Below are positions 19,595 through 39,228 of a DNA stretch of 64,000 nucleotides, one piece after another. The notes beneath the pieces were generated by a model. That model saw only the letters and a program-made list of their open reading frames with translations. It was not told the DNA's origin and ran no database searches. Each line of letters starts with the position of its first letter. Position 1 is the stretch's first letter. Both the position numbers and the translations under genes were made by a program. The stretch lies in contig CAZALK010000008.1 in assembly GCA_964486045.1 (NCBI GenBank), positions 32,001-96,000 of the forward strand. The letters are read 5' to 3'. Source of the stretch: an uncultured archaeon. GTDB taxonomy: Archaea; Asgardarchaeota; Lokiarchaeia; Sigyniarchaeales; SOKP01.

Positions 19595-20677
19595 ATGGGA
19601 TATGACATTATCTCATTGCCAGTTACAATTCTCTTTATACTAAGTGGATCAGGGTTATTTTATTATGCGATTAGACTCAATCAAAAATATCCAATGGAAC
19701 ACAATTTTATTAACAGTATTTTAACATACTTGTTATGGCTAACAGCAGGAATAATATATCCTCTCTTTTTCTCTGCCTATAATCCGAATATTCGATTTTT
19801 CCAAATGCTGTCAACCTTCTTTATTTGTATATTCACTCCAAGTATAATAATTTTAATTCTGTATTATCAATACAAATTAATTGTAGAGAAGCATCCAAAT
19901 ATAAAAGAAAAACGGAATATTGAAACTTTTTTACAGAGCTTTGGTCAAAAGAACAGTCAAAATTCAGATCAAAGATCAAAAAAACTAAGAACAGATATCC
20001 ATAGAAAAGCATTACCTATATTTCCTGCTGGAATAATAATTTTACTTTGGATTTTTGCAGTATATATTTGGGATGATATCTGGAATGTTAATCTAGTTTG
20101 GGGAATAACTGGAAAGGAATTTGGTAGATTCTTAATTTTAACTGCGGGATATTCGGGAATTTTAGTATTTGGTGCTTTAGATTATATCAGATTATCTTAT
20201 GTTTTTGAAAAAAAGAACCTATTCCATCTTATCCCAGATAATGTTTTAAATCTCTTAAGTAAGTCTATGAGGCGTGAAGAAAATTTTGATTTCATAAGGC
20301 CAACAGTCCTAGTTCTATCATTTGCTCCCATATTTTTTTTTCCATTCTGCATATTTGCAACTTCAATATTAATCGCAACGATTGGAGATGGAGCCGCATC
20401 TGTGTTTGGACTTAGATTTGGGAGAATTAAATTTCCTAGATCGTCTGAAAAAACGATTATTGGATATGTGGCAGGTTTTTTAGCCTCTTTTGGTATAGCT
20501 TTTATAATAATCATATCATTTGAACCAGCTCTGCAAAACATCAAGATTTTGTTAATTAGTATTAGTGGAGGACTTACATTTCTTATAATTGATCTTCTAA
20601 ATCTAAGAATTGATGATAATATCTTAAATCCAATTTTTTGTTCCTTGATAATGGGAGTTTTGTATTTTCTCTTGTGA
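19595..20677 (+). CDS. CTP-dependent polyprenol (dolichol/phytol) kinase family membrane protein
   Basis: Multi-TM; RK..., GDGAAS..G.RFG, SEKT..G, DDN motifs. Confidence 0.75.
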   Translation: MGYDIISLPVTILFILSGSGLFYYAIRLNQKYPMEHNFINSILTYLLWLTAGIIYPLFFSAYNPNIRFFQMLSTFFICIFTPSIIILILYYQYKLIVEKHPNIKEKRNIETFLQSFGQKNSQNSDQRSKKLRTDIHRKALPIFPAGIIILLWIFAVYIWDDIWNVNLVWGITGKEFGRFLILTAGYSGILVFGALDYIRLSYVFEKKNLFHLIPDNVLNLLSKSMRREENFDFIRPTVLVLSFAPIFFFPFCIFATSILIATIGDGAASVFGLRFGRIKFPRSSEKTIIGYVAGFLASFGIAFIIIISFEPALQNIKILLISISGGLTFLIIDLLNLRIDDNILNPIFCSLIMGVLYFLL

Positions 20678-21120
20678 CGATGATTTTAAAATACCAATAC
20701 CTGGCGTAGTTCTAATTTTAAGAAATTAAAGAAATCATGAATAATGAAAGGTAAAAAAAAAAATAGTAAAATAGATTTTGACGCAATATGTAAAAATAAG
20801 CTAAACTGGTTTAACATATTCAGTGATTTCAAACTTATATATTACAATTTGCCTTCTTTTTAATCGATATTTCGCTTTGTTTATTTTAAAAACAATATTT
20901 TACTATTGTGTAGAAGATATAAGACAAATGTTTATTTAAAGCTTTTCTTCATGCTTATCTTTATATCCAACCAAAATATCGTTTAAATAACTAATTTCTT
21001 TGTTATTGAGTTCAATTTTTGAAGGATTTATTGTTAACACATCTATAAAAATAAAATTTTATAAATAGTTATGTTCTAAACATATTGCCACAATATTTTA
21101 AACAATAAATAAAAAATATA

Positions 21121-21564
21121 TTGAGAGTGAAAGTGAAAAATTTGCCTCGTGTAGAGAGAAAAGTGGATATTTCAGCACCTCAAGAAAAGATTTTCAAGAT
21201 AATTGATACAGATCGGGATTATGCTCGATGGAATATTGTCGTGAATGAGGTTACTGAGCTTGGTCCAGGTAACTATTTCTTTAAAACAAATGTGGGAGAT
21301 GTCACGTCAACTCGTGTTGAAACCAATCCGCCTGAGAGTCTTTCTGCGTCTCAAGAAGGAAGCCCAATGACAAGTTTAGGTTATGTATTAAAACCAAAGG
21401 GAGATATTGTAGAAGCTACGATTTGGGCGGAATTCGATGATGCAGGTCAAGAACAAATACTTGGTATGGCTGGGGAGATGCTTGTAAGTAGTTTGAAAAA
21501 ATATGCTGAATACCTTGAAGCTGGAGGAAATCCAGAAGATTATAACAAAAAGAAAAAATACTGA
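21121..21564 (+). CDS. SRPBCC (START-like) family protein
   Basis: ISAPQEKIF...ARWN ... LKKYAE pattern. Confidence 0.75.
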   Translation: MRVKVKNLPRVERKVDISAPQEKIFKIIDTDRDYARWNIVVNEVTELGPGNYFFKTNVGDVTSTRVETNPPESLSASQEGSPMTSLGYVLKPKGDIVEATIWAEFDDAGQEQILGMAGEMLVSSLKKYAEYLEAGGNPEDYNKKKKY

Positions 21565-21582
21565 AATTAATTTATTATTAAA

Positions 21583-22107
21583 TTAGTCTTTTCTTTTATT
21601 TTTTAGCACACTTTTTTCTGCTTCTTCTAAAGAATAAAAAAGATCTCGACCATTGTCATACTTCTCAACGTAGCAGAACCTTAGAAAAAATAAACTTTCA
21701 GGGAAATATTGAATGACTTGTATTTTTTTTATTAAAAGTGAAGGATTTTCATCAATTTTCCCCTGTATTGTTGAAACTACTTCAGGTTGTAGTTTTCTGA
21801 ATTCACTTACAAAAGATAAAAACTTATTTAATGGATCTTGATTTCTATCAACGTTCTCCGTGATAGCATGAGCCCATCCGTATGATAAATTCCAATTAAA
21901 TTTCATTTTAAGCCATTCACCAAAATGTTTGAAAAGAGGAACTCTTACCTCAACGATCGAATGTAATTCTAAACATGAATCATAACCAGCCAAAAACATT
22001 GATAATGATCTGATTGATTTGTCTGGAATGAACATACTTGTACGTTCTTTAATTCTGTCAATCAGATCAAAAATATTTTTCCTTTCAAAATAATTTTTCA
22101 TAGTCAA
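21583..22107 (-). CDS. Hypothetical protein
   Basis: 174-aa ORF just downstream of the polB fragment, same strand. Confidence 0.6.
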   Translation of the reverse strand: MTMKNYFERKNIFDLIDRIKERTSMFIPDKSIRSLSMFLAGYDSCLELHSIVEVRVPLFKHFGEWLKMKFNWNLSYGWAHAITENVDRNQDPLNKFLSFVSEFRKLQPEVVSTIQGKIDENPSLLIKKIQVIQYFPESLFFLRFCYVEKYDNGRDLFYSLEEAEKSVLKNKRKD

Positions 22108-22148
22108 GATCTTTCAACCAAACTCGTTTTTTTGATTTTCTGAATAGT

Positions 22149-22588
22149 TTAGAAAAAAGCATCCATCTTTTTAATACCTTTAACTTCATCAAATGTAATT
22201 CCGAGTGCATCCAACACTTGTTCTAATGCGGATGTCAAGAGCTCCTTATATTTTTTAGTATCAATATCTTGGAGTTTGGCTAATTCTAGTGCTTTTGCTC
22301 CAATAAGACCTTTACTTTTAATAAAACTAATTTTTTCACCCTTTTGAAATTCCCTTTTAGTAATTTTTTTCAATTCGAGAGCAGCTCGGACATGTTGTGG
22401 TATAACCTTAGTATCATTTTTAAGAGCCTTTTTAAGACTCATATTTATCGCGTAATCATTCAAGTTAAAGTATTAGATTTTCGAATTTTTTTGATATTAT
22501 CTCTTACGATTCCAATTATTTCATCTTTAACATTAGTAAATTCTTCAATTTTTGTGATATTTTTTAACATTTCAATTAAAATTGAAAA
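22149..22588 (-). pseudogene. Displaced, frameshifted 3' fragment of family B DNA polymerase gene
   Basis: FSILIEMLKNITKIEEF...KKIRKSNT, 1-nt deletion near 22468, then NLNDYAIN...IPQHVRAA...ALEQVLDALGITFDEVKGIKKMDAFF; aligns to the last ~150 aa of polB (about 61/87 identical by hand in the distal part). Confidence 0.9.
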
Positions 22589-22968
22589 ATTGTGAGAAAA
22601 TTCCCCATATTTGAGATTTGGACAATTTATACAAAACGTTTTTAAATCTGTGATAAAAGATCAACCTATTTATTTTAGAGAAGATTCATAAACTTTACCT
22701 TGACAAAAATATCAAATCTTCATTTTTGTAAATTCTTTTACGTGCTAAAATAAAGTATTCGCTCTCAAACTCTCTAACACACCGTAAAAAGATAATATTT
22801 AAAATGAACAAAAAATCATTCTTAGACTGCTTCAGGGAGTGCACGATGATGGAAAAGTTGTTATGCGAAAAGTATAGAATGATAAAAATTAGAAAGGAAA
22901 TATTTAAACATCCGGATGAAAAGATGATGGGAATTAGAGAATTTTAGATTCCGCTTGACAAAAAATTT

Positions 22969-23862
22969 TCATTGATAAAAAGGAATAATTCTTGCATAGT
23001 TAATATCTAAAAAATGCAAAATCAATTTAAAATCCTTCAAATTCAGAGTATATATCTTATTCTCTGAATTAATCAATAATTCACATATAAAAAAATCTCC
23101 TAGATTAAAGCAATATCGCGTGTGAAAATCATATTTTCTCTTATTAGTATTAATATCTATCAATTTTTCTACTGTTTTATAGAATCGGTCATCTAAAATT
23201 AATTTATTTTTCTCACAAAAACCTTGGGCTTCATTAAGAATAGTACTAAATACTTTTTTATATTTCTTAGTTAATTGTTCTAATTTAAATTCTCTGGCAT
23301 TGCATATTTTCTTCGCACAGCTATTAATATATAAAAATTCATAACAAAAAGTATTTTCATTATATACGATTTCCCACTCCGATCTTGGACATGGATATGT
23401 TAGGTTATTATTCCATTTAGAGATTTCTTCTTGAAACTCTAATAAATCATTAACAATAATATTAAAAGCTGATTTTACTCTATGAATTTGCTTTTTTTCA
23501 TAATTTGGATCAGATTTCTCTACAGGAATTTTATCAATACAGTTTCTTATAATTGTAACAATAGAGGTACAGCGATTTTTTAATTGAGGGCTTCTTTTTC
23601 TCTGGATATATTGGTTAATATCAATCCAAAAATCATCAACATTAAATTGTTTCTTTTTCGAATTTAATTTTTCAAAAACTATTTCCCTTAATTTAAAAAA
23701 TGAATTTAAAATTACTGTTCCTATCTCTGATTTTAAAATCGGATTAATTAAAATGTTATTTTTAAATGTAATAAATTGATTTTTTATTCTGTCTTTCTGT
23801 GAGGACTTACCATATAAATAATACACCAAAACACTTGTATCGGGGATTATAGCAATAATTAT
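22969..23862 (-). CDS. PIN-domain nuclease with large internal insertion
   Basis: Frame upstream of the annotated TTG reads IIIAIIPDTSVLVYYL (PIN DTSVL motif); C-terminal NLGDFFI and IYTLNLKDF match PIN D..I and T.N.KDF motifs. Confidence 0.7.
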   Translation of the reverse strand: MIIAIIPDTSVLVYYLYGKSSQKDRIKNQFITFKNNILINPILKSEIGTVILNSFFKLREIVFEKLNSKKKQFNVDDFWIDINQYIQRKRSPQLKNRCTSIVTIIRNCIDKIPVEKSDPNYEKKQIHRVKSAFNIIVNDLLEFQEEISKWNNNLTYPCPRSEWEIVYNENTFCYEFLYINSCAKKICNAREFKLEQLTKKYKKVFSTILNEAQGFCEKNKLILDDRFYKTVEKLIDINTNKRKYDFHTRYCFNLGDFFICELLINSENKIYTLNLKDFKLILHFLDINYARIIPFYQ

Positions 23863-23915
23863 ACATCACTCATCTCTTTCTATTATTGCTGTTATTTGCA
23901 TTTTATATTATTCAT

Positions 23916-25130
23916 CTAAAGTTCTATTTTTTCTTTAAAATCAACGAATATATGATGATCTTCTCCTATAATTTTGATCGATTCAATATCGTCTTTTTCA
24001 GAAAATTCATCAATTTCTTCAATTAATTTAAAATCAGTAATTTTTGTTTGTATCTCTTCAATTTTTTTTGATTCAGTTGTCTTCTCTCTTCTAATAATTT
24101 GTTTCTTTTCCTCTTTTTTTATACTTCTTAACTCATTTTTAAATTCTTCATAGTCTATTTCCAGTTCTGGCAATTGATCCTTATAATCTATGAATTCAAG
24201 TGAATTTTTTAATTCATTAAAATGTAATCTTAATTTTTCAATAGAGGTTTTATTCAGAGGATAATTTAATTGCAAGGATTTTAGAAAGAATTTCAAAAAC
24301 TCCTTTTTTGAATCAAGACTAGTTAAGTGAGTTTTTTCAAAAGTAAGTACTTCCAATAATTTATATTTCAAGAATTTAAACGATTCATCTGGATCATCTA
24401 TTGAAATGTTATCTATAGTGAAGACTAAATGTTTTTTATTAATTTGACTTTTAGCTTTAATACCTTGACGAATTTCTTCCAAAATTGAATAAAAATGCTC
24501 TTTCTCTATGTTTTTTTCATTTCTACAGAATAAATTCAAAATACCATCAAGATTGCTAAATAATTTAATGATATAGCCTTCATCTAAGCTATAAATCATC
24601 TTTAATATAACTTCTTGATTAAAGAATTTATTATGCGCTATTATTTGTTCTTTAATAATGGATTTCTGGGTAAATTTAGGCTTTAAGTAATAACAAAGTT
24701 GAATAAGATCAGTCAAATGTTCATGATCATAATGTACTGATAATATTTTAATTAGTTTGATTTCCTTTTTGAGGTCAGAATTATTTATATAGTTATCTTT
24801 TAATATACTTTCAATTTCTTTCTTTCTTTCAGGATTTATTTGATATAATCTTTTAGAATCTATAGGAATAAAATTCGAGTTTTTCTCGAATACTTCTTCG
24901 TAGGAAATGAGTTGCTCAGTAATTAAGGGTGCAATATTCGTTTGAAAATTAACTGCAAATGGACCTAGATTATATGAAATGAAATCAAGATCAGATTCAC
25001 CCTTAAGTTCAAATATTTCCTCTAATAAGAACATTAATTTCATTGCTCTTGTTATTAAGGTAGTGTGTACTTTCGAATAATACAATATCAATAAAATCTT
25101 TTCATTAAAATCTAGATTACTTAAGCTCAT
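23916..25130 (-). CDS. Panacea/SocA(DUF4065)/YwgA-like antitoxin domain + helical and acidic C-terminal extension
   Basis: KILLILY...TRAMKLMFLL...FISYNLGPF signature; 14-nt overlap with the upstream gene. Confidence 0.65.
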   Translation of the reverse strand: MSLSNLDFNEKILLILYYSKVHTTLITRAMKLMFLLEEIFELKGESDLDFISYNLGPFAVNFQTNIAPLITEQLISYEEVFEKNSNFIPIDSKRLYQINPERKKEIESILKDNYINNSDLKKEIKLIKILSVHYDHEHLTDLIQLCYYLKPKFTQKSIIKEQIIAHNKFFNQEVILKMIYSLDEGYIIKLFSNLDGILNLFCRNEKNIEKEHFYSILEEIRQGIKAKSQINKKHLVFTIDNISIDDPDESFKFLKYKLLEVLTFEKTHLTSLDSKKEFLKFFLKSLQLNYPLNKTSIEKLRLHFNELKNSLEFIDYKDQLPELEIDYEEFKNELRSIKKEEKKQIIRREKTTESKKIEEIQTKITDFKLIEEIDEFSEKDDIESIKIIGEDHHIFVDFKEKIEL

Positions 25131-26454
25131 TTTCTATTTCCTCCTTTTTCTTTTTTAATAACTCCCAATTATTCATTTTTAAATTTGTACTAAATATTTC
25201 TTTTATAAATTCTTCTAAATCACAATGCAATTGGCGATCTACATTATAAAAATTATGGTTCATCAAAATAATATTTTGTTTGGTCTTCAATTTTTCCTTT
25301 AGAGTCTTTACTGCTTTTCCCCTGAACTTATTATAAGCATTTACATCAACTGGATTTTGGAAATATATATCAAATGCTCTCTGTAATGATTTAATTCTAA
25401 AATCATAACAACTTGAACATTTACAATTATAGTCTAAACTAGGTTTACGCAATAAATCCTCTGAAAACCCTCGATCATTATAAAATTTACCATTTCTTTG
25501 AAAATAAAATCTTCTGGTTCGAGGAACCATAGCAGGAATATTTACATTAAGACCAGGATACCCACTAATTCTTATAATTTTTTTAATATTAGGATTTATT
25601 TTATCAATAAGTCGTGAGCTACAAACACCAATATAAAACACGAATAATTTAGCAAATACTGAATTGAACTTTTCGATTATATCATAAAACTCCTTCATTT
25701 CCTTTTTACTGGCACTAATCTCATTGAAATCTACAATCCATAATCCTATTTTATTAAAGAACTCATATTTCTTTATTATTTCAGTAATATCATAATGATG
25801 TTTCATATAATCTTTTAGATTTAATACAATCATGGGAATATGGTTATTTAAATTATATGTCTTGACATATTTAAGAGATAGATTATATAATTCCTCAATA
25901 GCTTTTTCATTAATACTATTTAATTTTTTAAAAAAAGAACCTTTCTTAGAAATTTTTATTGGAATTGCTGGTAAAAAAGGAATAGTAAAGCAAGAAACTT
26001 TGAAATTATCATGACTCTTAAATAATTTCTTTTCAATTAAAGTCCTCGGTCTATTTTTGTATTTCTCAACAAAATCAATAATCTGAATTGACTCTGATAT
26101 TTCTTTTTTAAAATATTTTTCTAAATTAGCACCTTGAAAATCAGAAACAAATAAACTATAATCTTTTAGAAGTTTTTCTTTTGTTTCATCGTTTAGAGAA
26201 GGAGTTTGAGGATCTATCAGATAGGGGCGAACATTATAATAATTCTTATATAAAATAACCTCCTTATTAAGACTTTCAATTGATTTTATAAAAGATTCAT
26301 CAATTTGCTTCTGTTTGGTTTTTTTGTCCTCTTTGAAGAAATGTCTTTTAGGAACTAGAAATCCCTTGCATAGAGAATGCTTTAAATAGAGATTTAATCT
26401 TTCAATTTCCGTCTTAAATTGAAGTTTATAATATATATTTGACAATTTAATCAT
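25117..26454 (-). CDS. Putative TIM-barrel protein with TGT-like zinc site
   Basis: YLIDPQT, GLWIVDF, RRFY, CKCSSC and distal HN, resembling the CxCxxC...H zinc site of tRNA-guanine transglycosylase-fold proteins; 8-nt overlap with the upstream gene. Confidence 0.5.
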   Translation of the reverse strand: MIKLSNIYYKLQFKTEIERLNLYLKHSLCKGFLVPKRHFFKEDKKTKQKQIDESFIKSIESLNKEVILYKNYYNVRPYLIDPQTPSLNDETKEKLLKDYSLFVSDFQGANLEKYFKKEISESIQIIDFVEKYKNRPRTLIEKKLFKSHDNFKVSCFTIPFLPAIPIKISKKGSFFKKLNSINEKAIEELYNLSLKYVKTYNLNNHIPMIVLNLKDYMKHHYDITEIIKKYEFFNKIGLWIVDFNEISASKKEMKEFYDIIEKFNSVFAKLFVFYIGVCSSRLIDKINPNIKKIIRISGYPGLNVNIPAMVPRTRRFYFQRNGKFYNDRGFSEDLLRKPSLDYNCKCSSCYDFRIKSLQRAFDIYFQNPVDVNAYNKFRGKAVKTLKEKLKTKQNIILMNHNFYNVDRQLHCDLEEFIKEIFSTNLKMNNWELLKKKKEEIENELK

Positions 26455-26890
26455 TTATTTGTTCTTTTAAGATATATCTTATCTTCTGATAATTCGCTTG
26501 GATAAGATATTTACTTTTTTTCGGCTTTAATTCAATGATATTTTTATCTTTTGATACAATTATTAATCCTATCCCTTCGTTAATTAACATATCTCTATCA
26601 ACTTTATCTTCATAATCTTTCCAAATAGCTAATGAATTATAAGGAATTAGAACCCGATTTCCTAAAGTTTGTCCAAATCCTTTTTTCCAATTAAATACTT
26701 TAAATTCTAATGCGTGGGCAGTTCCAAACCGATTATTATACTTTCTTAGTTGAACAAGATCGATTCTTTTTTGATTATTTTTAACTTCCTTAAAGATTAG
26801 GGTTTTGTCGCCTTCTATCAATTTTAAATTCCCGATATAGGTATTCACCATTTCAAATTCTGAAATAATTTGTTGATTTTTGACCAGCAT
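26447..26890 (-). CDS. Small PD-(D/E)XK nuclease-like protein
   Basis: SEFEM helix, KEV, RIDLV, ALEFK..WKKGFGQ, GIGLI. Confidence 0.65.
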   Translation of the reverse strand: MLVKNQQIISEFEMVNTYIGNLKLIEGDKTLIFKEVKNNQKRIDLVQLRKYNNRFGTAHALEFKVFNWKKGFGQTLGNRVLIPYNSLAIWKDYEDKVDRDMLINEGIGLIIVSKDKNIIELKPKKSKYLIQANYQKIRYILKEQIND

Positions 26891-27069
26891 TAATTAATTA
26901 TATTCTATTCAAACTTAAATAATTTCTATTTTAATTAATAGGAGTAAGGAAGATTTATGGTTTCAATTTAATTAAGTGAAAAAGATTTAGTGTCAAGTCA
27001 TTTAAATAGCAGTTAATTAGTTTTTTAATTACTAATAAAATCAAAGTTGAGTTATGAATAATAAAAAAA

Positions 27070-28557
27070 ATGAGGGAAGAAAGGGAAATTAAACGAAACC
27101 ATATCAATACTTCATGTAGTAAAAATGAGTTAACAAAAAACACAGGAAAGGGTAATTATGGGACAATGGATAATTTTTTTGAAGATATTAAATCAGGTTC
27201 TATAGAGGTTGAAAGAGAATATTTTACCAGTAAATCAGGTCTTCCTTATGATGAGGAAATAGTAGTAAAAGATCCAAATGGGATTGTTTGTAAGGTTAAA
27301 ATTGGAAGTATAGAGAATTCATGGAAAAACTTAAAAGTTTTATCAATCAACAAATTTAATTCACCGAAATTTGGTTCACCGAAATTTGTACCGATTATAA
27401 ATTTTTTAAAAAGTGTAACTTCATTTTTATTAAAAATTCGGTTATCAGATGGGAGACAAATTGTCTGTAGTCAGAATCACATTTTTCCTAAAATTGTAAT
27501 TTCTATCAATTTTAAATCATATAATTCTCCAGAAAGCTTCTTTTCAATTAAATATGTGAATGCTAAAGAACTAAAGGAGCGAGATAATTTGTTAGTCTTT
27601 CACAAGATTCCATTGACTTCAAACGTTCCAAAATATATTTTTATTCCTAAACTTCTTAATTGGGAGCATAAATGGATTGGAATAAAAAGAAGTGATTATG
27701 TAAAATTTTCCTATAGAACGAATCAAAGAACTAATAATCCTTTAATACAATTAATAAATTCAAAATTTCAATATTCCAAGGTGGGAAAAAAATATAGAAC
27801 ACTTTGGTCAAATTTATCAAATTCGGAAAAACTTTTTCTTGAAATGGAAGCGAAAAGAAATCACGTTGAAATCTTGATAAAGATCCATGAAAATGTTGGA
27901 TTTTGGTATTCATCAATAGTTCCATTAACAGATGATTTTTTTAGATATTTAGGTTGGTATGTTGCTGAGGGGTCTACAGACAAGAATAGAGTGACTATTT
28001 CTCAATCAAAAGAAAAAAATTATAATAATTGGATTGAAATTATTGATCTCCTTAAGCGATTAGGGTTCCCTGTAAGCATTTGCGCGCAAAATATGATCAG
28101 AATAAATTCAAATGTCTTAACTGAGCTAACAATTGAATTATGCTTAAAATTGGCTCAAAACAAGAAAATTCCTTTAGAATTAATTATGAATAATAGTAGG
28201 ATAAAGTCATTTTTAGAAACATATTATAAAGGAGATGGTTGTCAATTAAGAGGGGAATTAAAGAAATATACAACCACAAGTCAGCAATTAAAAAATGATT
28301 TAGTAAGCATTCTTGGAGCGACAGGACATTTTTGTTCTATTTGGTATCCAAGTTCTTCAGATAATTGTTATCGTATAACCGAAACTGATGGAAAACATTA
28401 TAAAAGAAAATACTTAGGTCTTCTTAAATTCAACAGTACAACTCCCATAAGGATTAAGTCCATAAGAAAAGTTAAAAAAAATTATGATATATTTAATTTA
28501 AAGACTGAAAATGGTTGGTTTGTCTCAACAAACGGAATTTTAGTCCAGGATTCTTAA
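27070..28557 (+). CDS. Stand-alone intein-like protein (Hint + LAGLIDADG/DOD homing endonuclease) with degenerate splicing residues
   Basis: Block A SGLPYDEEIVV (from 27235), block B IVCSQNHIF, LAGLIDADG motifs YLGWYVAEGS and FLETYYKGDG, blocks F/G IFNLKTENGWFVSTNGILVQDS then stop. Confidence 0.85.
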   Translation: MREEREIKRNHINTSCSKNELTKNTGKGNYGTMDNFFEDIKSGSIEVEREYFTSKSGLPYDEEIVVKDPNGIVCKVKIGSIENSWKNLKVLSINKFNSPKFGSPKFVPIINFLKSVTSFLLKIRLSDGRQIVCSQNHIFPKIVISINFKSYNSPESFFSIKYVNAKELKERDNLLVFHKIPLTSNVPKYIFIPKLLNWEHKWIGIKRSDYVKFSYRTNQRTNNPLIQLINSKFQYSKVGKKYRTLWSNLSNSEKLFLEMEAKRNHVEILIKIHENVGFWYSSIVPLTDDFFRYLGWYVAEGSTDKNRVTISQSKEKNYNNWIEIIDLLKRLGFPVSICAQNMIRINSNVLTELTIELCLKLAQNKKIPLELIMNNSRIKSFLETYYKGDGCQLRGELKKYTTTSQQLKNDLVSILGATGHFCSIWYPSSSDNCYRITETDGKHYKRKYLGLLKFNSTTPIRIKSIRKVKKNYDIFNLKTENGWFVSTNGILVQDS

Positions 28558-28607
28558 TAAATTCAAAATTAAATCTTTTCTTATTTTCAATCATTATATG
28601 TGATTTT

Positions 28608-31544
28608 TCAAATAAATCCATCTAATTTTTGAAATTCAAGAGTTTCTAAGCTTGAAATATCAATACCAATACTAAAAGCATCAACAAACTGTTCTAGAGC
28701 TGATCTCAATAGTTCTTTGTATTTTTTCACATCAATATCTTGCAGATTTGCTAATTCTATTACTTTAGCTCCGATTTTATCTTTACTCTTAATAAAACTT
28801 ATCGTTTCGCCTTTTTGATATTCTTTTGCGGTTTTTTTTTTAAATTCTTGAGCAGCTCTAACATGCTGTGGTATTGTTTTTTTATAATTATCAAGCTTCT
28901 TTTGCATAATTATGTTAATTGCATAATCTTTTAAGTTGAACGTGTTGGGCTTTCCGATTTTTTTAAAATTTGAAATAATAAGCTTTTTGATATCTTTCTT
29001 TGCTTTTAAAAATTCATCATAGCTAGTGACCTCTTTAATAATTTCTAATAAATCACTGAAAGCTTTTTTAATAAATTCTGGTGTGTTTTTCTTCTTTGCT
29101 ACAAGGCCTTTCATGTCAATATATTTAGTATCCTTATATACTCCAAGATAATTCTTTTTTCTATCAGAAAGAGCTAAGAATTGATAAGTTTTTTCCTCTT
29201 CCAAGTCAAGATCAAGGGTTTTTTTACTCCAGTCAGTTATTTCACTCAATTGTTCTTTTGAAGGGTTTAAGAGGAAAACAGAATCTGTATCCCCATATAA
29301 AACCTTAATCCCTATTTCTTCAGTTTTTTTTATTGTTTGTTTAATAGAATATTGCCCTATTCCCGTGATGCTTTCTGCTACTGGTAAACAAAACAACGGG
29401 AAATTTTGAGACCCAAAAACACCAAAACTTGCGTTAACAAAAACTTTAAGCGCTTGTTGAATAGTTTGATTATAACTTCTTTGTTTTTCTGTTGAACTTT
29501 TATCTTCTGATTTAGGTTTAAAATACTTAACTCTTATATCCCTGAAAAATCCAACAACATAGGCAAAGATCCCCATCTTTTGAGAGCAAATATGGTATGG
29601 AGAGCCTTTTACTAAATTATCTCGATCTTCTTTATGAGGACAAATAACTGTTTCATAGGAAAGATTGTATTCCTTTATTATTGATGGATATAGACTTGCG
29701 AAATCCATAACAACAACATCAAAATGAATTCCAGGAACAGGTTTTATTACATATGCCCCTTGGAATTTCTTATCGTTCGCGCTAGACATCATTTTTCCCC
29801 CTTTCTTAAGCTCTGAAATCTCAGATCGCCGAGGGATTAAGTAATTCTTCCTACGGTGTTCAAAATGGAAAATATTTCGTATCCATGTTGATATTTGCCT
29901 TCTAACCATTTCATGGACAGGCATTTTAGTTATCCGGCATAACAAAATGATTAAATTCCAAACTAACGAGTTGTTAAATTTTGTCAGTTCTAAGGTTAAT
30001 AAAGAATCTTTCAGGTTATACCAGGAAAGGATATTATAATCCATATCTTGGATTTCTTCCTCATGCTGATATTTTTCCTCTCCCAGAAGAGCAGCACTAA
30101 TAGCATTCAAAGACGAACTTTCATAAGCACCTCCAAAAGCGTATCCAGAGATGCTTCTATTGAAAAATAAATTAAACACGTCAATGTGAATTCCACTCCT
30201 TAGTTCACATTCTGCTTTGGTCATAATACCAAACCCACGTTTAACTTGAATAGGATTAAGGTCTTTATTAACCTTTAGCCTGTCATTTGCCCTATGATAT
30301 AAATAGTTTAAATCAAAATTGTCTCCGTTAAATGTAATAACAACTGGATACTCCCACATTAGGCGAAATGTCTCTATTAGTAAACTTTTTTCAGATTTGA
30401 AGAAGATAACTTTCGCATCAGGAGGAAATTTTTCATGAGGTTTTGTATATTTGTAACCTTCCCTTTCTAGAATATAAACAAGTTTCAACCCATCTGTGGC
30501 AACAAAAGATATACTTATTACTTCCTGTTTGGCTAAGCGAGGGTCTGGAATGCCATGATCTTTAACATCCATACTTACCTCAATATCCATAGCCATACGT
30601 TTGACATCAGGGATTGGAGTAATGAAAATATCCAAAAATGCCTCAGAAAATTCTTGAATCTCGGGGGATTCATCTTTAAATAAATCTCTAAGCTCATTCG
30701 CCACTTTTTTGGAATCTTTATCGATCTTCTCAAAATCTATTTTTTCTAGCTTTCCATTTTTAATACAGTAAATAAGACCGGGGATTAACTGCCTATCGAA
30801 GATATAATTTAAATGATATCGGATATCAGCTTCGTAGGCTTTTTTTCCATTTTCTTCTAAAATAGTACGAATATTTGTCCCAGTGCCACCAATATTTGTT
30901 GGAGTTTCCCCATAAAGCTTTGTAATTTTAATTTCCTTATCGGATAATAAATCAAATTTTTTAATCTCTTCAAATCTTTTGAACCAAGGATATTCAGTTA
31001 ATTTAGTCTTTTCTAACTCTGAAATTGGCTCTTTACTTAAACAGTAAGGTTCATGGTCAGTGGTATCAATCCAAATTTTTATATCGTCTTCGTCTAAATC
31101 ATAGAATTTACAGTATGCTTTATTTTGCCCACCATCATAATCCACATCAAGCAATAACCCTTGATCTAAATTATCTACGATTTTTCCTGTTGCGATTAAA
31201 TAACGAATATATGTCGAAGTTACACCTTCTCTGAGTACTTTATCAAGTTTTACATTGCCTAATTTTAATCCAAAAGGTTCTTTGTTTTCCTTATAAAACA
31301 GATTTTTTGGAATTTCACCACTAACTAATTTTTCTTCAGGGGAAAACTTTTCAATATTTTTCTCTTTAATTGGTTCTGGTTTTTCAGCAGTTTTTTTTTC
31401 TTTAATTTCTTCTTTCGTGGTTACTTTTGCTGGTTCAATTTTCTCACCTTTTTTATCATCTACAAAAGAAAATAAGGATTTTTGCGCTTTGTCTTCAATA
31501 CTCTTCTTATTGCTTTTTTTTGGACTAGGCACTTTGTACACCAA
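28608..31544 (-). CDS. polB: Family B DNA polymerase (PolB1-type), no inteins
   Basis: Exo I DIE, Exo II NGDNFD, Exo III YNLKD; pol motifs DFASLYPS, KVFVNASFG, YGDTDS, KKNY; N-terminal PIP-like QKSLFSF. Confidence 0.97.
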   Translation of the reverse strand: MVYKVPSPKKSNKKSIEDKAQKSLFSFVDDKKGEKIEPAKVTTKEEIKEKKTAEKPEPIKEKNIEKFSPEEKLVSGEIPKNLFYKENKEPFGLKLGNVKLDKVLREGVTSTYIRYLIATGKIVDNLDQGLLLDVDYDGGQNKAYCKFYDLDEDDIKIWIDTTDHEPYCLSKEPISELEKTKLTEYPWFKRFEEIKKFDLLSDKEIKITKLYGETPTNIGGTGTNIRTILEENGKKAYEADIRYHLNYIFDRQLIPGLIYCIKNGKLEKIDFEKIDKDSKKVANELRDLFKDESPEIQEFSEAFLDIFITPIPDVKRMAMDIEVSMDVKDHGIPDPRLAKQEVISISFVATDGLKLVYILEREGYKYTKPHEKFPPDAKVIFFKSEKSLLIETFRLMWEYPVVITFNGDNFDLNYLYHRANDRLKVNKDLNPIQVKRGFGIMTKAECELRSGIHIDVFNLFFNRSISGYAFGGAYESSSLNAISAALLGEEKYQHEEEIQDMDYNILSWYNLKDSLLTLELTKFNNSLVWNLIILLCRITKMPVHEMVRRQISTWIRNIFHFEHRRKNYLIPRRSEISELKKGGKMMSSANDKKFQGAYVIKPVPGIHFDVVVMDFASLYPSIIKEYNLSYETVICPHKEDRDNLVKGSPYHICSQKMGIFAYVVGFFRDIRVKYFKPKSEDKSSTEKQRSYNQTIQQALKVFVNASFGVFGSQNFPLFCLPVAESITGIGQYSIKQTIKKTEEIGIKVLYGDTDSVFLLNPSKEQLSEITDWSKKTLDLDLEEEKTYQFLALSDRKKNYLGVYKDTKYIDMKGLVAKKKNTPEFIKKAFSDLLEIIKEVTSYDEFLKAKKDIKKLIISNFKKIGKPNTFNLKDYAINIIMQKKLDNYKKTIPQHVRAAQEFKKKTAKEYQKGETISFIKSKDKIGAKVIELANLQDIDVKKYKELLRSALEQFVDAFSIGIDISSLETLEFQKLDGFI

Positions 31545-31685: not shown

Positions 31686-32036
31686 CTATGCAATTTTTTT
31701 GTTTTGAGTAATAATATTCTTTATTTCATCTAATAGCAGAGTTTTCTCAGCGATATACCAGTCAAGTTGGCTTTTTGAAGGATTTTCATGATAAATGATT
31801 TCTGAGACATCTCGAATTTCGTTTTCGGGAGGTTTAAGTAATTCACCATTTACATCCTCTCTTATTAATAAAACAAGATTATCGGTTTCTAAAGGTTGGA
31901 TATCATACCCATTCTTTACATTTTTGTTAATAGTAACACAAAGCTCAGCAAGCCGCCAAATCGACTTCTCTAACGTATCTCCTTTCTTATATATACGAAA
32001 CGCTAATCTAACAACATCCTCTTTGGAAAAAGGCAT
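31686..32036 (-). CDS. Hypothetical protein with two DUF2934-like repeats
   Basis: VVRLAFRIY...WRLAE and IRDVSEIIY...WYIAE. Confidence 0.6.
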   Translation of the reverse strand: MPFSKEDVVRLAFRIYKKGDTLEKSIWRLAELCVTINKNVKNGYDIQPLETDNLVLLIREDVNGELLKPPENEIRDVSEIIYHENPSKSQLDWYIAEKTLLLDEIKNIITQNKKIA

Positions 32037-32081: not shown

Positions 32082-32116
32082 TAAAAAAAAAGGATATGTT
32101 AACTTTTAACTATTTG

Positions 32117-32156
32117 TGTTGATTTTTATACGTTTTGAAACCACAAAATTAAAAAT
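32117..32156 (+). repeat. 40-bp direct repeat, left copy
   Basis: tgttgatttttatacgttttgaaaccacaaaattaaaaat; 37/40 identical to 39179-39218. Confidence 0.85.
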
Positions 32157-32387
32157 AGATATTATTTTGTTATGATATCGATTATTATGTATTTATGGTC
32201 AAAATAAGGTATGTAATTTTGATTATTTACCATAGCTCCAATTTTTTTTCAGTAAAGATGAAATCTTTAATATTAAAAGCAGTTTCTTGTGAAATTTTTC
32301 CCATAAATCTAATTTTGCGAGTAATTTCTCGTTTTCATTAGCAATCTTCACAGCTAACTGATTAAGACCAAATTTTTTTTGATTCAA

Positions 32388-33209
32388 TCAAACCTTTCTT
32401 GCAACAGAAATAAAGGTTTTTGCAAAAATCAATCCCTGCCATTTATTATAAAATTTTTCCTCTAATTTATTTCGAAAATTAGTTTGCTCAGAAGTTGTAA
32501 ATGACGGAGGAAGTATATGGAAATTGTAGTAAAATTGTTTCTTTTCATTAAAGCTATACCGCTTTAGTTTTTCTTTATATATTAACGGATTCTCAGATTT
32601 CATGGTTTTTTCAGATTTTGGCTGTTGCGGCGCTGTAATTGCCTTTTTTAGTTTGGCTTTGTATCTATTAAAAATATCCTTATCCACTATTACCTTATTA
32701 ATTAATTTCTGTGAGATAAGCTCAATTGTATACTTGTCAAATGTAAATAAATCAAAAAACAGATTATATTGTGAGGTTATTAGATAACCATTATCCTTTA
32801 AAGTACGATAGCACTCTTTGTAAACCCTGGATTCATCTTTAATATAGGGGAGCACCCCATTAAGCATAATAACATCAAACTTTTTGTTTTCAAATATATT
32901 CATGTCAAGAACAGAGCAGTGTATTATATCATGTTTTATTTTTTCTTTTACTGCTTTTTGCCTAGCATACTTTAACATTTTCCTTGATAAATCAATTGCA
33001 GTACAATCCCAGCCCTGTTTTGAAACTTCTCTGGCTATATAACCAGATCCACATCCAGCATCCAATATTTTTCCTTTTTTCAATTTACTTAGAAACCTTA
33101 GAATAATCTTTGCTCTATGTTTATTTGCAGGATAATTATTTTTTTTTCCGTGATAAGAGTTATCTTCGTAGTTTTCTGCAACATCATCCCATATCTTTAT
33201 ATCGTCCAT
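32388..33209 (-). CDS. Class I SAM-dependent methyltransferase
   Basis: ILDAGCGSG, IDLS..ML, FDVI, LKDNG. Confidence 0.9.
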   Translation of the reverse strand: MDDIKIWDDVAENYEDNSYHGKKNNYPANKHRAKIILRFLSKLKKGKILDAGCGSGYIAREVSKQGWDCTAIDLSRKMLKYARQKAVKEKIKHDIIHCSVLDMNIFENKKFDVIMLNGVLPYIKDESRVYKECYRTLKDNGYLITSQYNLFFDLFTFDKYTIELISQKLINKVIVDKDIFNRYKAKLKKAITAPQQPKSEKTMKSENPLIYKEKLKRYSFNEKKQFYYNFHILPPSFTTSEQTNFRNKLEEKFYNKWQGLIFAKTFISVARKV

Positions 33210-33279
33210 AATATCCCTCCAAAATTTAATTTTGAATAAGTAATTAGGAGTTAAATTAAACAGCGCAATTTAGCTTAAT

Positions 33280-34460
33280 TTAATTCTTCTTACTTCTTTC
33301 TTCCTCTTCTTTGTGCTAAGTGTCAAATTGTTTATCTAACTCGTCCATAAAATCAGATATTGTCTCTTACTTAACGATTAAGAATTTCCCATCAATTATA
33401 AAACCAAATTCGAGGGCCCATTCGAATATTTTTGCACTAAATCTATCCTCGTCCATTTTAAGAGCCTTTCTCATCATTTCAAACTCAATACGCGTAGAAA
33501 CTTCCATCATCCTCTGAACCTTCTCTAATTTTCTACGGGGAGTTCTAATTTTAGTCCCTCGCTTCTTTTTTCTTTTATAAATTATCATCCCAGCAATGAA
33601 CATTACGCTGATCACTATACTAACAACAACTATTATTACAACGGCAGCTTCTTGAGTGGCAGCTTCTTGAGTGGCAGCTTCTTGAGTGGCAGCTTCTTGA
33701 GTACCACCAATATCCTCATTATTGCCGCTAAAACTGTTATTTGAAATTTCATTACATTTAGATTCTTCATCTATGTAAATACCAAAATTATTAGCAATTA
33801 TATTATTTACCGAAAAGATGTTATTATCACTATGGTCGAATTATTAACGTTGTTATCGACAATGATTGTATTATCACTAGTGTGTGACGCTATACCCATT
33901 TTGTCATTATTATTGACGGTGTTTCCCAAGATAGTGTAATTAGAACCCCCTAAGTTTATACCAGATCGCATATTGTAGCTTGCGATGTTTCCTGAAGCTG
34001 TATGGTTATTACTATTATCATATATATTTATTACGTAACCTCTATTGTAGCTTACGTTGTTGTTAATAATTTATCCGTTATCAACAAGTCGAAATTTTAT
34101 TCCATCCTCACCTGCATTGTAGATAGTGCAATTTTCGATTTTAAAGTACACGCTTGAATCTTGAATCCAGAAAAAATTTCCCGAACCTTCACAATCTATT
34201 ATTAAATTCTCTATAACGTATGGGTTGGATTCAGTGCCTGAACCTGTACAAATTCCAGCAGCTTTAGCAGCAGACCAGTCGGAATTACCGTTTAAGTAAA
34301 TTTTTTTTGACACTTTAGAGAATCTCAAACTTTCGCTATCTAAGTTTATATCATCCTTATAATCCGAACTTTGAATACTACTTCCAATTTTAAAATTGAG
34401 GTTATAGATTATCACTGGTGTTAATACGAACCCAAGTCCTAAAACCAAAAGGATTAAATT
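33280..34460 (-). pseudogene. Degraded NosD/parallel beta-helix surface protein with C-terminal TM and cytoplasmic tail
   Basis: N-terminal piece CTGSGTESNPYVIENLII; Asn-rich middle broken by stops and frameshifts; TM and tail with in-frame TAA (33367) and a later TAG before the apparent original stop near 33280. Confidence 0.75.
33643..33702 (-). repeat. Four perfect 15-bp tandem repeats encoding (TQEAA)4
   Basis: ggcagcttcttgagt x4. Confidence 0.95.
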
Positions 34461-34696
34461 CAGGACGGACTGTTGTAACCATAAGAATTGATATTGGACA
34501 TTTTCAACTAATAACCAAAAGTAAGCACATCCTTTTTCTTCCCCTTTCTATAATAATAAATAGCTATAAGTAAAAAAATAATCCCTACAATCATTTGAAC
34601 TTTGGGAATACTCATGTACAGGGAAGTATTGGAATAATCATAAAAAAGGGATCGATAAATGTGCAGGTTGTGCCTTCGCGTGAGATTAATAGAGAT

Positions 34697-36994
34697 TTAA
34701 TCGATAACAATCTCACTTAATTTTAATCCTAAATCTATATCTGTTATATCATCTAATGAATACATATTTAAAAAAGAAAGTAAACAAGCTACAGTAGATT
34801 CTGCACCTTGATTTCTGTTTATTCCAGTGGGGGTTATACTATCATAACATCCTCCAGTTTTATAATCGTAAAGAGAAAGATTCATATCATTGCGTCCTAA
34901 ATACCATTCTAAACAACGACGTGCATTAACAATCCATTTTTTATCTTGAGTGCTTTTATAAGCCTCAACACATGCTTCAAGAACACTTTGGGCTTCGATT
35001 GGTTGTTGATCAAATCTTGCTTTTTCTCCATTTTTAGGATACCAGCCATTGTTCCCTATAGGAGAAAATTGTCCTTTTTTATTAGTCTGAATTTGAATTA
35101 ACCAATCTAATGATCTTATTCCTGCTTCGACCATATCTCCTCGTTGTAACCATTGTCCAGACATTATCAGAGCATGTGGAATCTTTCCGTTATCATAGGC
35201 GAGCATATCTTCAATCCAAGGCCACTCATCTGAAGCATTTTTGCTATAAAAAGAAAATAATTTATTAGCGATTTCTTTTCTAAATCGTTTAATTTTAATA
35301 TCTCCACTGAATCTTTCTAAATAAGCATGAATTCCTACTAAACCAAAAGCTAAGGCACGTGGAGAATTAAATTCCGATAAAGTACTCACAGCCTTTTCAA
35401 AAATATCTAAAACAATGTTACTTGTTTCTCTCTTCTCTGATAATGCGACTGCCACACCCAGAGCCCAGATTGCTCGACCATGACAGTCTTCAGATCCATT
35501 CTCTTCAATCCATGTACGATCATAACCCATAAAATTACGAAACTGGTTATTTTCTTCATCAAAAGCATATAATAAAAAACTTAAATACTTGTATCCAAAT
35601 TTTCTCAAAAATTCTTCTTCAAATGATAATTTTTGAGCAATCAATACTGCTACTAGTGCTCTAGCATTATCATCTGTGCAATAACCATGAAAACGATTTG
35701 GTATTATATAGTTTGCGTGTTGTAAGATGCCAACATCGTCTGTTAAACGAAATACATGCTCAAATTTAGGATACGGCATTTCAAATGGAGTAAATCTCAA
35801 AAATTTCTTCTGAAATATAGTTTTTGGATGTAATAATCGATTTTCTTTAACATCATCAAAAATATCTATATATTTTCTAGCGACTTCTTTCCAAATCATA
35901 TTTCTAGCGAACATATAAGCATTCTTCCTCATATTATGCCCTTCAACTTCATTCTCTAATAAAAAGCAAATTTGCTTAGCTATAGATTTAGAATCATTGA
36001 AAGGAACAATTATTCCTCTTCCATCAGCTAAAATTTCCTCAGCATACCAATAAGGTGTAGAAATAATTGCTTTACCAGCTCCAAGTGCATAAGCTAATGT
36101 TCCAGAAACAATTTGTTCTTTTTTTAAATATGGAGTTATATAAATATCTGCCGCTCCTAAGAATTCACATAATTCTTTTAATTCTACAAATCTATTATGG
36201 AATATTATGTGGTCTTCCACACCTAATTCTCTAGCTTTTATTTGAAGAGAATGACGATATGATTCACCTTGCTTCTTCTTTAAATTTGGATGAGTAGCAC
36301 CTAAAACTATATATATAACATCAGGATATTTCCTAATAATATCTGGTAAGGCTTCAATCATTATTTCTATTCCTTTACTAGGACTAATCAAACCAAATGT
36401 CATTAGTACTTTTTTTCCTTCTACTCCAAACTGATCTTTAAAAAAATTTGGATCAATAAATGAGACATCTGGAATCCCATGATGGACTAAATTAATTTTT
36501 TCCTTAGAAACGTTATAAATATCTTTTAGAAATATCTCTGCCTTTTTACTCATAACAATTATACGATCTGAAATTTTTACTATTGTATTGATTATTTCCT
36601 TTTGTTTTAGATTAGGATTTGGTAAAAGAGTATGTAATGTTGTAACAATAGGCATTCTAAGATTTTTAAGTAAAGCTAAAATATAGCTACCATATTCTCC
36701 TCCATAAATTCCAAATTCATGTTGAAGACAAACAATATCAACTTTATTTACATTAAGATATTCGGCAGCTAATTTGTAATCCGTAAATCGGTTAGCATTC
36801 AATTCAAAATGAACTTGACTTGGATAAGGATATCCTTGAATAATATCGTTCATTGCCAGTGCCCAACATTCTAATTGAGGTGCTTCATTAGATACAGCAT
36901 TTAACAAATCATTAGTAAAAGTTGCAATTCCACATTTCCTTGGTAAATAATTACCAATAAAAGCTATAGTTTTTAGATTTGGGAACCTTCTCAT
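34697..36994 (-). CDS. GT4 glycosyltransferase fused to a C-terminal six-hairpin glycosidase-like domain
   Basis: PRKCGIATF, QHEFGIYGG, SGTLAYALGAG; C-terminal GYCTDDNARAL, FDQQPIE, NQGAEST. Confidence 0.9.
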   Translation of the reverse strand: MRRFPNLKTIAFIGNYLPRKCGIATFTNDLLNAVSNEAPQLECWALAMNDIIQGYPYPSQVHFELNANRFTDYKLAAEYLNVNKVDIVCLQHEFGIYGGEYGSYILALLKNLRMPIVTTLHTLLPNPNLKQKEIINTIVKISDRIIVMSKKAEIFLKDIYNVSKEKINLVHHGIPDVSFIDPNFFKDQFGVEGKKVLMTFGLISPSKGIEIMIEALPDIIRKYPDVIYIVLGATHPNLKKKQGESYRHSLQIKARELGVEDHIIFHNRFVELKELCEFLGAADIYITPYLKKEQIVSGTLAYALGAGKAIISTPYWYAEEILADGRGIIVPFNDSKSIAKQICFLLENEVEGHNMRKNAYMFARNMIWKEVARKYIDIFDDVKENRLLHPKTIFQKKFLRFTPFEMPYPKFEHVFRLTDDVGILQHANYIIPNRFHGYCTDDNARALVAVLIAQKLSFEEEFLRKFGYKYLSFLLYAFDEENNQFRNFMGYDRTWIEENGSEDCHGRAIWALGVAVALSEKRETSNIVLDIFEKAVSTLSEFNSPRALAFGLVGIHAYLERFSGDIKIKRFRKEIANKLFSFYSKNASDEWPWIEDMLAYDNGKIPHALIMSGQWLQRGDMVEAGIRSLDWLIQIQTNKKGQFSPIGNNGWYPKNGEKARFDQQPIEAQSVLEACVEAYKSTQDKKWIVNARRCLEWYLGRNDMNLSLYDYKTGGCYDSITPTGINRNQGAESTVACLLSFLNMYSLDDITDIDLGLKLSEIVID

Positions 36995-37079
36995 ATATAG
37001 TTTTTAATATTAATAACTTAAATAATTAAGCTAATAATTAAATTAAGATTAAAATCTTGAACTACTTTACTACTGACAA

Positions 37080-38294: not shown

Positions 38295-38514
38295 AATTTG
38301 GTAGAAGGGTCTCTTTCTTATTAATACTCTTATTTAATCATGGATATTATCGAAAGCTAACGAGTGATAAGGGGCTTCTCAATAGTAATTTAAAAAATAG
38401 ATCGTAAAAGTGAATCGTAGAGATAATATTTTATCAATTAATTATGATTTAGGTAATATTTGGTTAAAAGGCTCCTAAAAGCTTTATAAATTAGTCTAAC
38501 TATTTTTAATACAG

Positions 38515-39150: not shown

Positions 39151-39178
39151 GTAAATAAAACCTTCCTCTGTGACTTTT

Positions 39179-39218
39179 TGTTGTTTTTTATACGTTTTAA
39201 AACCGCAAAATTAAAAAT
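39179..39218 (+). repeat. 40-bp direct repeat, right copy
   Basis: tgttgttttttatacgttttaaaaccgcaaaattaaaaat; 37/40 identical to 32117-32156. Confidence 0.85.
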
Positions 39219-39228
39219 TTATAACACC

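Follow-up and report, generated by a model that had tools for sequence, protein, structure and literature searches.

A probable WHO-like homing element with an intein-derived, free-standing endonuclease at the 3' end of polB in an Asgard archaeon

In an uncultured Asgard archaeon (Promethearchaeota), the gene for a family-B DNA polymerase (polB) carries a foreign 3' end, and its former 3' end persists downstream as a pseudogene fragment, separated from the active gene by a free-standing LAGLIDADG homing endonuclease gene and a module of four further genes. The locus lies in a stretch of 64,000 nucleotides (nt), here called the window (contig CAZALK010000008.1, positions 32,001 to 96,000, of assembly GCA_964486045.1), which belongs to a metagenome-assembled genome (MAG) of 5.18 Mb in 45 contigs with 7.8% estimated contamination. 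That DNA was inserted, that the active tail is foreign and that the fragment is native is secure. From the sequences compared, we consider it quite probable that the locus is a homing element in an archaeon that resembles the WHO elements of yeasts, with an endonuclease derived from an intein rewriting the tail of polB. Replacement of gene ends by homing elements, without RNA or protein splicing, has up to now been reported only from the nuclei of yeasts (WHO elements, the ancestors of HO) and from fungal mitochondria; the same strategy would now be seen in the phylum closest to eukaryotes, aimed at a replicative-type DNA polymerase.

Results and discussion

The polB tail is present twice

The active polB gene (28608-31544, minus strand) is intact and encodes a protein of 978 amino acids (aa) with DNA_pol_B_exo1 and DNA_pol_B domains. 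Its last 147 codons occur a second time on the same strand, 6,471 nt away, in a pseudogene fragment (22124-22578, minus strand) that consists of codons ~832-978, the stop codon and 25 nt of native 3' flank. The polB tail matched the distal copy in BLASTN over 281 nt (73% identity, E 2e-44), and a repeat search returned a single direct repeat of 282 nt with 72% identity (22188-22469 and 28659-28940, spaced by 6471 nt), the only long repeat found in the region. These figures bear out a preliminary description of the locus, which had reported a tail of ~150 codons duplicated ~6 kb apart with ~70% identity, the distal copy being frameshifted and having the more typical terminus. The frameshift results from one 1-nt deletion near 22466 (stop at 22149-22151), and the C-terminus of the distal copy, ...GIKKMDAFF, is the canonical end in all 12 congeners examined. 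The active gene ends in the non-canonical ...LEFQKLDGFI; its tail is an open reading frame (ORF) in which the C-terminal L-D-G-F-I motif is retained.

An apparent duplication could also arise if two strains or species had been joined in the assembly, as the estimated contamination of this MAG might suggest. Such an artefact is extremely improbable, and a chimera can in practice be set aside. Positions 21000-30500, which include both junctions, are covered without a difference by a 19,164-nt Logan contig at a depth of ~290x that was built independently from what is probably the source sample. In a separate study, a 4,604-nt contig corresponds to 22551-27150 (97.5% identical) and a 1,774-nt contig to 27783-29556 (96%), and 28420-29519 is bridged by contigs from two further studies; the joints of cargo with endonuclease and of endonuclease with tail and polB are thus found in contigs of three other studies at 96-97.5% identity. 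A like architecture was found in at least six other assemblies. Two candidate cargo-less variants of this strain, with joints 22277->27106 (X3) and 22089->27050 (X8), were rejected; their sides of only 20-35 nt are too short as evidence.

The fragment is native and the active tail is foreign

The polB genes of the relatives compared are 71-77% identical to that of the window. The genes at 31686-32036 (upstream) and 19595-20677 (downstream, plus strand, 360 aa) flank polB in most of 12 congeners, the 360-aa gene being downstream of polB in 11 of the 12 and directly adjacent to it in several, so that it marks the native locus. Since the fragment lies beside genes that flank polB in the congeners, it occupies the native position. 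The genes of the island were found in none of the 12 congeners with flanks examined, and the site is empty in all of them; this comparison of empty and occupied sites also brought to light six more occupied sites with displaced native tails, described below.

The fragment is 87.1% identical over 457 nt to the tail of the congener G022 (89.6% at the aa level) and 73-77% identical in nt to the tails of four other congeners. The active tail has 57-66% aa identity to the 12 congeners, which are 80-87% alike among themselves in this part, and 94.6% aa identity to the tail at a metagenomic locus (L101). Separate trees for the body and for the two tails gave discordant placements: in the body tree (residues 101-700) the window polB is sister to G022 (support 99) inside its genus (g1), and in the tail tree the fragment is sister to the G022 tail (SH-aLRT 99) and the sister of the active tail is that of G070, from a different genus (99). 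A constraint that placed the active tail with G022 and the fragment cost 38 log-likelihood units and was rejected (approximately unbiased test, p 0.015). The reverse pattern, in which the active tail groups with the body and the fragment is foreign, was not obtained, and the proposal that the polB 3' end had been replaced by a diverged version while the old tail decays stands. A tandem duplication with divergence in place is rejected because the nearest relatives of the active tail lie in another genus and at L101. The host gene had also been taken as essential, a label that is putative here; PolD (DP2 subunit) and another polymerase of family B are encoded in the same genome.

The active gene can be divided into three parts. 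Codons 1-700 (29445-31544, minus strand) are resident by the body tree and by identity to G022; codons 701-831 (29052-29444) form a converted tract, family-typical but not G022-like, which is recognized by the drop in identity to G022; and codons 832-978 with the stop codon (28608-29051) are the foreign replacement tail, here named type A, as judged from the tail tree and aa identities. The inserted DNA (~22579-29051) comprises the foreign tail, the endonuclease gene and the four-gene cargo module.

The endonuclease derives from a pol-b intein

The homing-endonuclease gene that had been noticed between the tail copies is a 495-aa ORF with Hint and LAGLIDADG domains (27070-28557, plus strand). 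It lies downstream of polB on the opposite strand, and the two stop codons are 50 nt apart. The protein matches Pfam LAGLIDADG_3 (24.2 bits, above the cut-off) and Intein_splicing (Hint), PADLOC HEase (2e-11) and NCBIfam intein_Nterm. Both motifs of a two-motif LAGLIDADG homing endonuclease are present (...GWYVAEGS... and ...YYKGDGC...), and their catalytic acidic residues are kept in the 11 free-standing rows and 3 inteins aligned. Within the archaeal order of the window genome, strong relatives fall into two groups, inteins in polB and free-standing genes. The protein is 43-47% identical to the pol-b inteins within polB of G140, G148, G152 and G038, which sit exactly between G705 and S706 (KVFING/SYGVFGS, in the numbering of the window polB). 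Free-standing relatives that are 62-67% identical and convergent to polB were found in two genomes of the same genus (G078, G084) and two of a neighbouring genus (G070, G074), and a 41%-identical free-standing relative in a member of another family (G034). The free-standing endonucleases form one clade (support 100).

The splicing residues have decayed in this clade. The intein Cys1 is missing in all 10 free-standing forms that have their N-terminus (the window protein has Gly there), most forms have lost the block-B His, and the terminal His-Asn varies among them; the window protein ends in QD, the former +1 Ser and a stop. The 495-aa ORF thus does not present the set of features that define an intein (in-frame insertion in a host protein, Cys, Ser or Thr start, C-terminal His-Asn and +1 nucleophile) and, being without Cys1, terminal Asn and exteins, is unable to splice. 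A dN/dS ratio of 0.24-0.27 indicates purifying selection on the endonuclease. Taken as a sequence, the protein is best described as a splicing-dead, free-standing descendant of a pol-b intein; as the ancestral intein is still found in sister genomes, the transition from intein to free-standing gene can be traced stage by stage.

Among 5.8 billion proteins searched, only 12 free-standing relatives were found, and the named ones are all from Promethearchaeota and annotated as hypothetical. A locus search of genome contigs with the endonuclease gave one locus (G078), and searches of genomes and for homologous proteins found more. Strong matches (62-67% identity) are patchy, occurring in 2 of 53 other genomes of the genus and in 2 of 10 of the neighbouring genus.

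Several variants were seen in relatives. No zinc finger or Cys-rich domain is present in the window endonuclease; the endonucleases of G084 (L066 9341-11398, minus strand) and P0009 (L099 67-2139) are 685-690 aa long and have an N-terminal CxxC...CxxC extension, which recalls the zinc finger of WHO/HO and has no Pfam domain. In G034 (contig C119, locus L072), polB (3808-7518, plus strand) contains a mini-intein of ~166 aa at the pol-b site without an endonuclease domain, and a 1021-aa ORF directly downstream and convergent (7548-10613, minus strand) carries the homologous endonuclease (41%) in its C-terminal part. This arrangement resembles "collaborative homing" and is possibly an intermediate between the intein and the free-standing gene. 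Inteins at two further positions of polB, close to codons 618 and 750, occur in three congeners (G013, G018 and G008; L017, L020 and L026).

Occupied sites, mobility and decay in other genomes

At least nine other assemblies have a homologous endonuclease gene in convergent orientation to polB (G078, G084, G070, G074, G034 and loci L094-L101). The polB tails at endonuclease-bearing loci are foreign in most cases and accompanied by a displaced native tail in several. Displaced native tails, which start between codons ~855 and 927, were found in G084, G070, G074, G076, G103, L094-L096 and L101, lying behind the endonuclease or behind cargo, and all six that were placed in the tree fall inside the canonical tail clade. 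The foreign tails fall into type A, in the window genome and G070, and type B, in G078, G084, G076, G103 and G085; type B lies near the tail type of another genus. The minimal unit (L094) consists of the fragment, the endonuclease and a foreign tail without any other gene, and G078 has the endonuclease and a foreign tail without a displaced fragment. All loci seen have one endonuclease gene and at most one fragment, with no tandem clusters.

A metagenomic relative of the window element is found at L101. The two are 94.9% identical over window positions 27103-29887, which contain the type A tail, residue 12 onwards of the endonuclease, and polB to codon ~553, where the L101 contig ends and limits the comparison. 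The native-tail fragment of L101 is 77% and its flanking gene 75% identical to those of the window, and therefore the unit of endonuclease, tail and polB has moved or recombined between hosts. L101 has a shorter fragment (~60 codons) and one different cargo gene of 341 aa; the cargo is therefore exchangeable. These data indicate recombination-based gene flow between Asgard lineages and show a route by which cargo genes can be moved.

In G069 (L058 1507-1587), a 27-aa relic of the endonuclease, 67% identical to residues 430-456, sits 6 nt past the stop codon of a polB that has Gly705 and a canonical tail. This looks like a degraded element, in the decay stage expected of a homing cycle. In G070 (L067 5261-6067) and G074 (L068 4249-5070), a gene with a CxxCxxCC domain (PF03692, 1.4e-10) lies between the endonuclease and the displaced tail as variable cargo.

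An altered intein site in element-bearing alleles

In the window polB the pol-b intein site (codons 705/706 in motif B; 29427-29432, minus strand) is empty and reads VNA/SFG instead of the usual ING/SYG, which would make it a resistant form of the putative endonuclease target. Codon 705 specifies Ala or Ser, not Gly, in all 10 distinct endonuclease-bearing polB alleles; the change is written with five different codons, and in some alleles position +1 or +2 is changed as well. G034 has its mini-intein blocking the site instead. Gly705 is found in 33 of the 39 alleles that have neither endonuclease nor intein, and two of the other six carry type B tails.

The replaced tract begins at this site. 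The window polB is 88-98% identical in nt to that of G022 over codons ~555-700, with 98% over codons 681-700, and identity falls to 68-75% from codon 701; mismatched codon positions number 9 in codons 640-696 and ~49 in codons 697-760. Since the G022-like state is found in codons 555-700 and in the fragment, the native state is preserved on both sides of the replaced tract, which starts at codon ~701, within a few codons of the intein site, and runs to the stop. At codon 705 the mismatches per 15 codons rise from 3 to 13 between the window genome (G000) and G022, from 5 to 12 between G084 and G002 (a short patch), and through 3, 6, 11 and 15 between G103 and G085. For 66 pairs of genomes without the endonuclease the counts stay level (8.0 to 9.3). 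The likely site of cutting and immunity is not the junction at 29060/22590, near which the crossover had been placed earlier, but pol-b, ~375 nt further upstream. These profiles suggest that the breaks occurred at the pol-b site and that immunity would be conferred by substitution there, and on balance we favour this site as the target of the endonuclease. The recognition site is presumably the same as that of the pol-b inteins or related to it. A concrete target hypothesis follows that can be tested, namely Gly705 versus Ala or Ser in motif B.

Identity profiles of polB are mosaic along the whole gene in this genus, and PolB is a poor vertical marker in the group. Homing into polB would explain such mosaic polB trees and calls for caution when PolB is used as a phylogenetic marker.

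Proposed homing mechanism and its alternatives

We propose the following course of events, the order of the repair steps being part of the proposal. The endonuclease of an intein at the pol-b site would have become a free-standing gene directly downstream of polB on the opposite strand, and would cut polB alleles in which the site (ING/SYG) is unoccupied and unaltered. The element-bearing allele would then serve as the template for repair of the broken polB, and repair would copy the resistant site (Gly705 to Ala or Ser), the remaining 3' region of polB, the endonuclease gene and the DNA behind it. Downstream homology may be provided by the recipient's own tail or by the donor's tail relic, and this sequence would end as a non-functional fragment. 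Homing by the intein-derived endonuclease is, in our judgement, the likely explanation of the locus.

Several observations weigh against this explanation. In G076 (L073 6823-8956) and G103 (L074 3234-5367) the tail has been replaced (type B, with a displaced native tail) and no endonuclease gene is present. The endonuclease phylogeny tracks the host genus and the tail type does not, and therefore endonuclease and tail are not always inherited together. The six alleles with Ala or Ser at 705 mentioned above have no detected endonuclease, and G076 has a foreign tail together with G705. The main break lies at codons ~730-745 in the pair G076/G001 (max-chi-square 745) and at ~792 in G084/G002; because the single max-chi-square breakpoints do not all fall at 705, the target site is a position that we infer. 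The strongest divergence begins at codons 800-832 in every pair, which leaves room for cutting closer to the tail. Near-identical elements have different cargo, and simple copying between homology arms would not predict this. The compared genomes are related, so that the counts across genomes are not independent, and both the activity of the endonuclease and its cleavage target are deduced from sequence. The G076 and G103 loci contain two nearly identical genes of 373 and 336 aa, the 336-aa protein having a PD...E-A-K-like motif.

If the endonuclease were inactive or domesticated, the mosaic tails could have arisen from ordinary recombination of polB alleles, perhaps triggered by inteins, and the fragment would be a vertically inherited, one-off relic of an old illegitimate insertion. 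The circulation of inteins at the pol-a, pol-b and pol-c sites in the group, the mosaic structure of polB well outside the tail (the similarity of G000 and G022 also shifts at codon ~555) and the agreement of the endonuclease tree with genus would fit such a history. It accords poorly with the purifying selection on the endonuclease and the retention of catalytic residues while splicing residues decay, with the 95% identity of the L101 unit against 75-77% in its flanks, with the strict linkage of endonuclease presence to an altered site and with the patchy distribution within genera, and we regard it as unlikely.

The island might also be an integrative element or cassette that was inserted by other machinery, such as an unrecognised recombinase or illegitimate recombination, in which case the polB 3' end would be an att-site replacement and the endonuclease a passenger or an old resident. 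The borders give little sign of such machinery. No integrase or transposase domain was found between the tail copies in Pfam, NCBIfam and PADLOC scans (a recombinase among the unmatched ORFs is not fully excluded), in agreement with the preliminary description; terminal inverted repeats and an identical att core were searched for at the island borders and none was found, the sole flanking repeat being the 72%-identical polB tail. The island thus shows neither the tyrosine or serine recombinase nor the identical att core at both borders that characterize an integrase-mediated element. The minimal occupied sites (L094-L096) contain only a foreign tail and the endonuclease, and insertion by other machinery leaves the altered intein site and the breakpoints at codon 705 unexplained. 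The loci of G076 and G103, with replaced tails, two other genes and no endonuclease, the four window ORFs without family match and the different cargo of near-identical elements speak for it; the G076 and G103 tails belong to the type B clade together with those of the endonuclease-bearing G078 and G084, which fits a later loss or replacement of the endonuclease. Insertion by other machinery is therefore an improbable account of the island.

Beyond this locus, we tentatively suggest that Asgard archaea may harbour autonomous, gene-drive-like homing elements, in which an escaped polB-intein endonuclease would spread between species by cutting at motif B and would carry along the final third of polB in its resistant form together with cargo of any sort, defence-like cassettes among it, with the arrangement in G034 as a surviving intermediate. 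Such elements would be an independent re-run of the route that led to yeast WHO and HO, and their spread would mean that in natural Asgard populations DNA often passes from cell to cell and undergoes homologous recombination.

Comparison with known systems

The closest counterparts are the WHO elements of Torulaspora and Lachancea yeasts, relatives of HO, whose free-standing endonucleases are of intein origin and home into FBA1 (Coughlan et al. 2020, PMC7282813; preprint 10.64898/2026.08.13.744650); they swap the FBA1 3' end for a resistant version and leave 3' fragments behind (PMC7282813). The polB element shares the structural features of a free-standing, intein-derived LAGLIDADG endonuclease without exteins just downstream of the host gene (in WHO, too, sometimes in opposite orientation), a host 3' end replaced by a diverged version (resistance-conferring in WHO and probably so in polB), and an old 3' end left downstream as a decaying fragment and possible homology arm. 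In both systems trees of the host gene's 5' and 3' parts disagree, and resistance is due, or in polB would be due, to sequence differences between alleles and not to an interrupted site. The differences are as follows. The host is polB in an archaeon instead of FBA1 in a yeast nucleus; the polB endonuclease descends from an intein of the same gene (pol-b) and not from VDE, and it is not a member of the WHO/HO protein family; the zinc finger that is fused in WHO/HO is absent from the window endonuclease, some relatives of which have the N-terminal Cys-rich extension; WHO loci contain tandem clusters of elements and fragments, and here there is one element per locus; the putative cut site in polB is ~125 codons upstream of the retained fragment; and the polB element carries cargo genes. 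With a pol-b intein as ancestor and no zinc finger, the origin of the polB element is therefore independent of WHO/HO. No archaeal, Asgard or other prokaryotic equivalent of WHO was found in the literature searched, an absence there not being proof of absence, and the 2026 follow-up preprint on WHO (10.64898/2026.08.13.744650) does not mention "archaea".

Mobile ORFs (mORFs) with a foreign C-terminus are found in fungal mitochondria, in atp6 of Allomyces macrogynus and in atp6, atp9, cox2 and nad3 of Glomus (PMC3630166). As in polB, an endonuclease ORF inserted towards the 3' end of a conserved gene has supplied the coding sequence of a foreign C-terminus; the native C-terminus lies displaced downstream and clusters in trees with those of close relatives. 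Unlike the chromosomal, archaeal polB element, mORFs are organellar, and their endonuclease, often an in-frame fusion to the host gene and co-transcribed with it, is not intein-derived and comes without cargo.

Intronless homing by the free-standing endonucleases Seg and Mob of phage T4 (PMC2988022, PMC2790892) likewise involves an intergenic endonuclease gene whose product cuts the neighbouring gene in genomes that do not carry the endonuclease, with co-conversion of flanking markers, and the locus of G078 (the endonuclease between polB and the next gene, with no fragment) has the identical arrangement. The phage enzymes differ in being GIY-YIG or HNH proteins that are not intein-derived, and the phage systems leave no duplicated fragment and act between co-infecting phage genomes. 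The archaeal pol-b inteins share homologous Hint and LAGLIDADG domains with the window protein (43-47% identity, as given above), which differs from them in lying outside polB and in having no exteins, Cys1 or terminal Asn.

Cargo module and left junction

The four cargo genes are all on the minus strand: gene 1 (26447-26890, 147 aa), gene 2 (25117-26454, 445 aa), gene 3 (23916-25130, 404 aa) and gene 4 (22969-23829, 286 aa). None of the four proteins gave a match above cut-off in Pfam, NCBIfam or PADLOC. Gene 1 encodes a D...E-x-K motif, of which D44 and E62-F63-K64 are invariant in 4 homologues; its AlphaFold2 (AF2) model, made from a 4-sequence alignment, is too poor for use (pLDDT 56.5). 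The gene 2 product has a low-confidence beta/alpha-barrel prediction (AF2 pLDDT 57.7, 4-sequence alignment), for which Foldseek returned only generic TIM barrels (TM ~0.3) and the Atlas feature search only leads to TGT/DpdA at 0.79-0.81. For the N-terminus of the gene 3 product, the Atlas search gave a weak lead to SocA/Panacea proteins (a SocA-like Panacea cluster at 0.91, a lead only), and the product has a PADLOC match to the DarG C-terminal part (1.7e-5). As the family, Atlas, AF2 and Foldseek searches gave leads only, the earlier label of a nuclease/toxin-antitoxin cassette and the label "TGT-like" are neither supported nor refuted.

Genes 1 to 3 recur as an operon in the same order (24-41% identity) at three non-polB loci in two congeners, which makes this operon a module in its own right that came to lie between endonuclease and fragment. 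The three loci (L091 on G018:C85, L092 on G080:C30 and L093 on G018:C44) may represent an undescribed multi-gene system.

A 5'-truncated, stop-bearing remnant of a small DUF1040-like gene (22578-22685, plus strand; weak match, E 0.0026) directly abuts the polB fragment. It is 84% identical over 108 nt to an intact ORF of 72-79 aa on contig C5 of the same genome, and this homology ends exactly where the polB homology starts. The junction at 22578 therefore marks the end of a secondary deletion, not the place of the original insertion, and endpoints of this type account for the variation in fragment length among genomes. An Rfam scan of the left junction gave one sub-threshold snoRNA-like match and nothing else.

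Neighbouring variable regions

A 174-aa ORF without family match (21583-22107, minus strand) lies between the displaced tail and a Polyketide_cyc2-like gene. It is absent in the relatives examined, and in G002 polB directly adjoins the cyclase-like gene. On the opposite side of polB there is a second variable block of ~7.5 kb (32100-39600), whose flanking genes (31686-32036 and 39643-41226) are adjacent to each other in relatives; it encodes an S-adenosylmethionine (SAM) methyltransferase, a 765-aa GT4/GT1 glycosyltransferase, a GH130-type phosphorylase with a winged helix-turn-helix (wHTH) domain, and other proteins.

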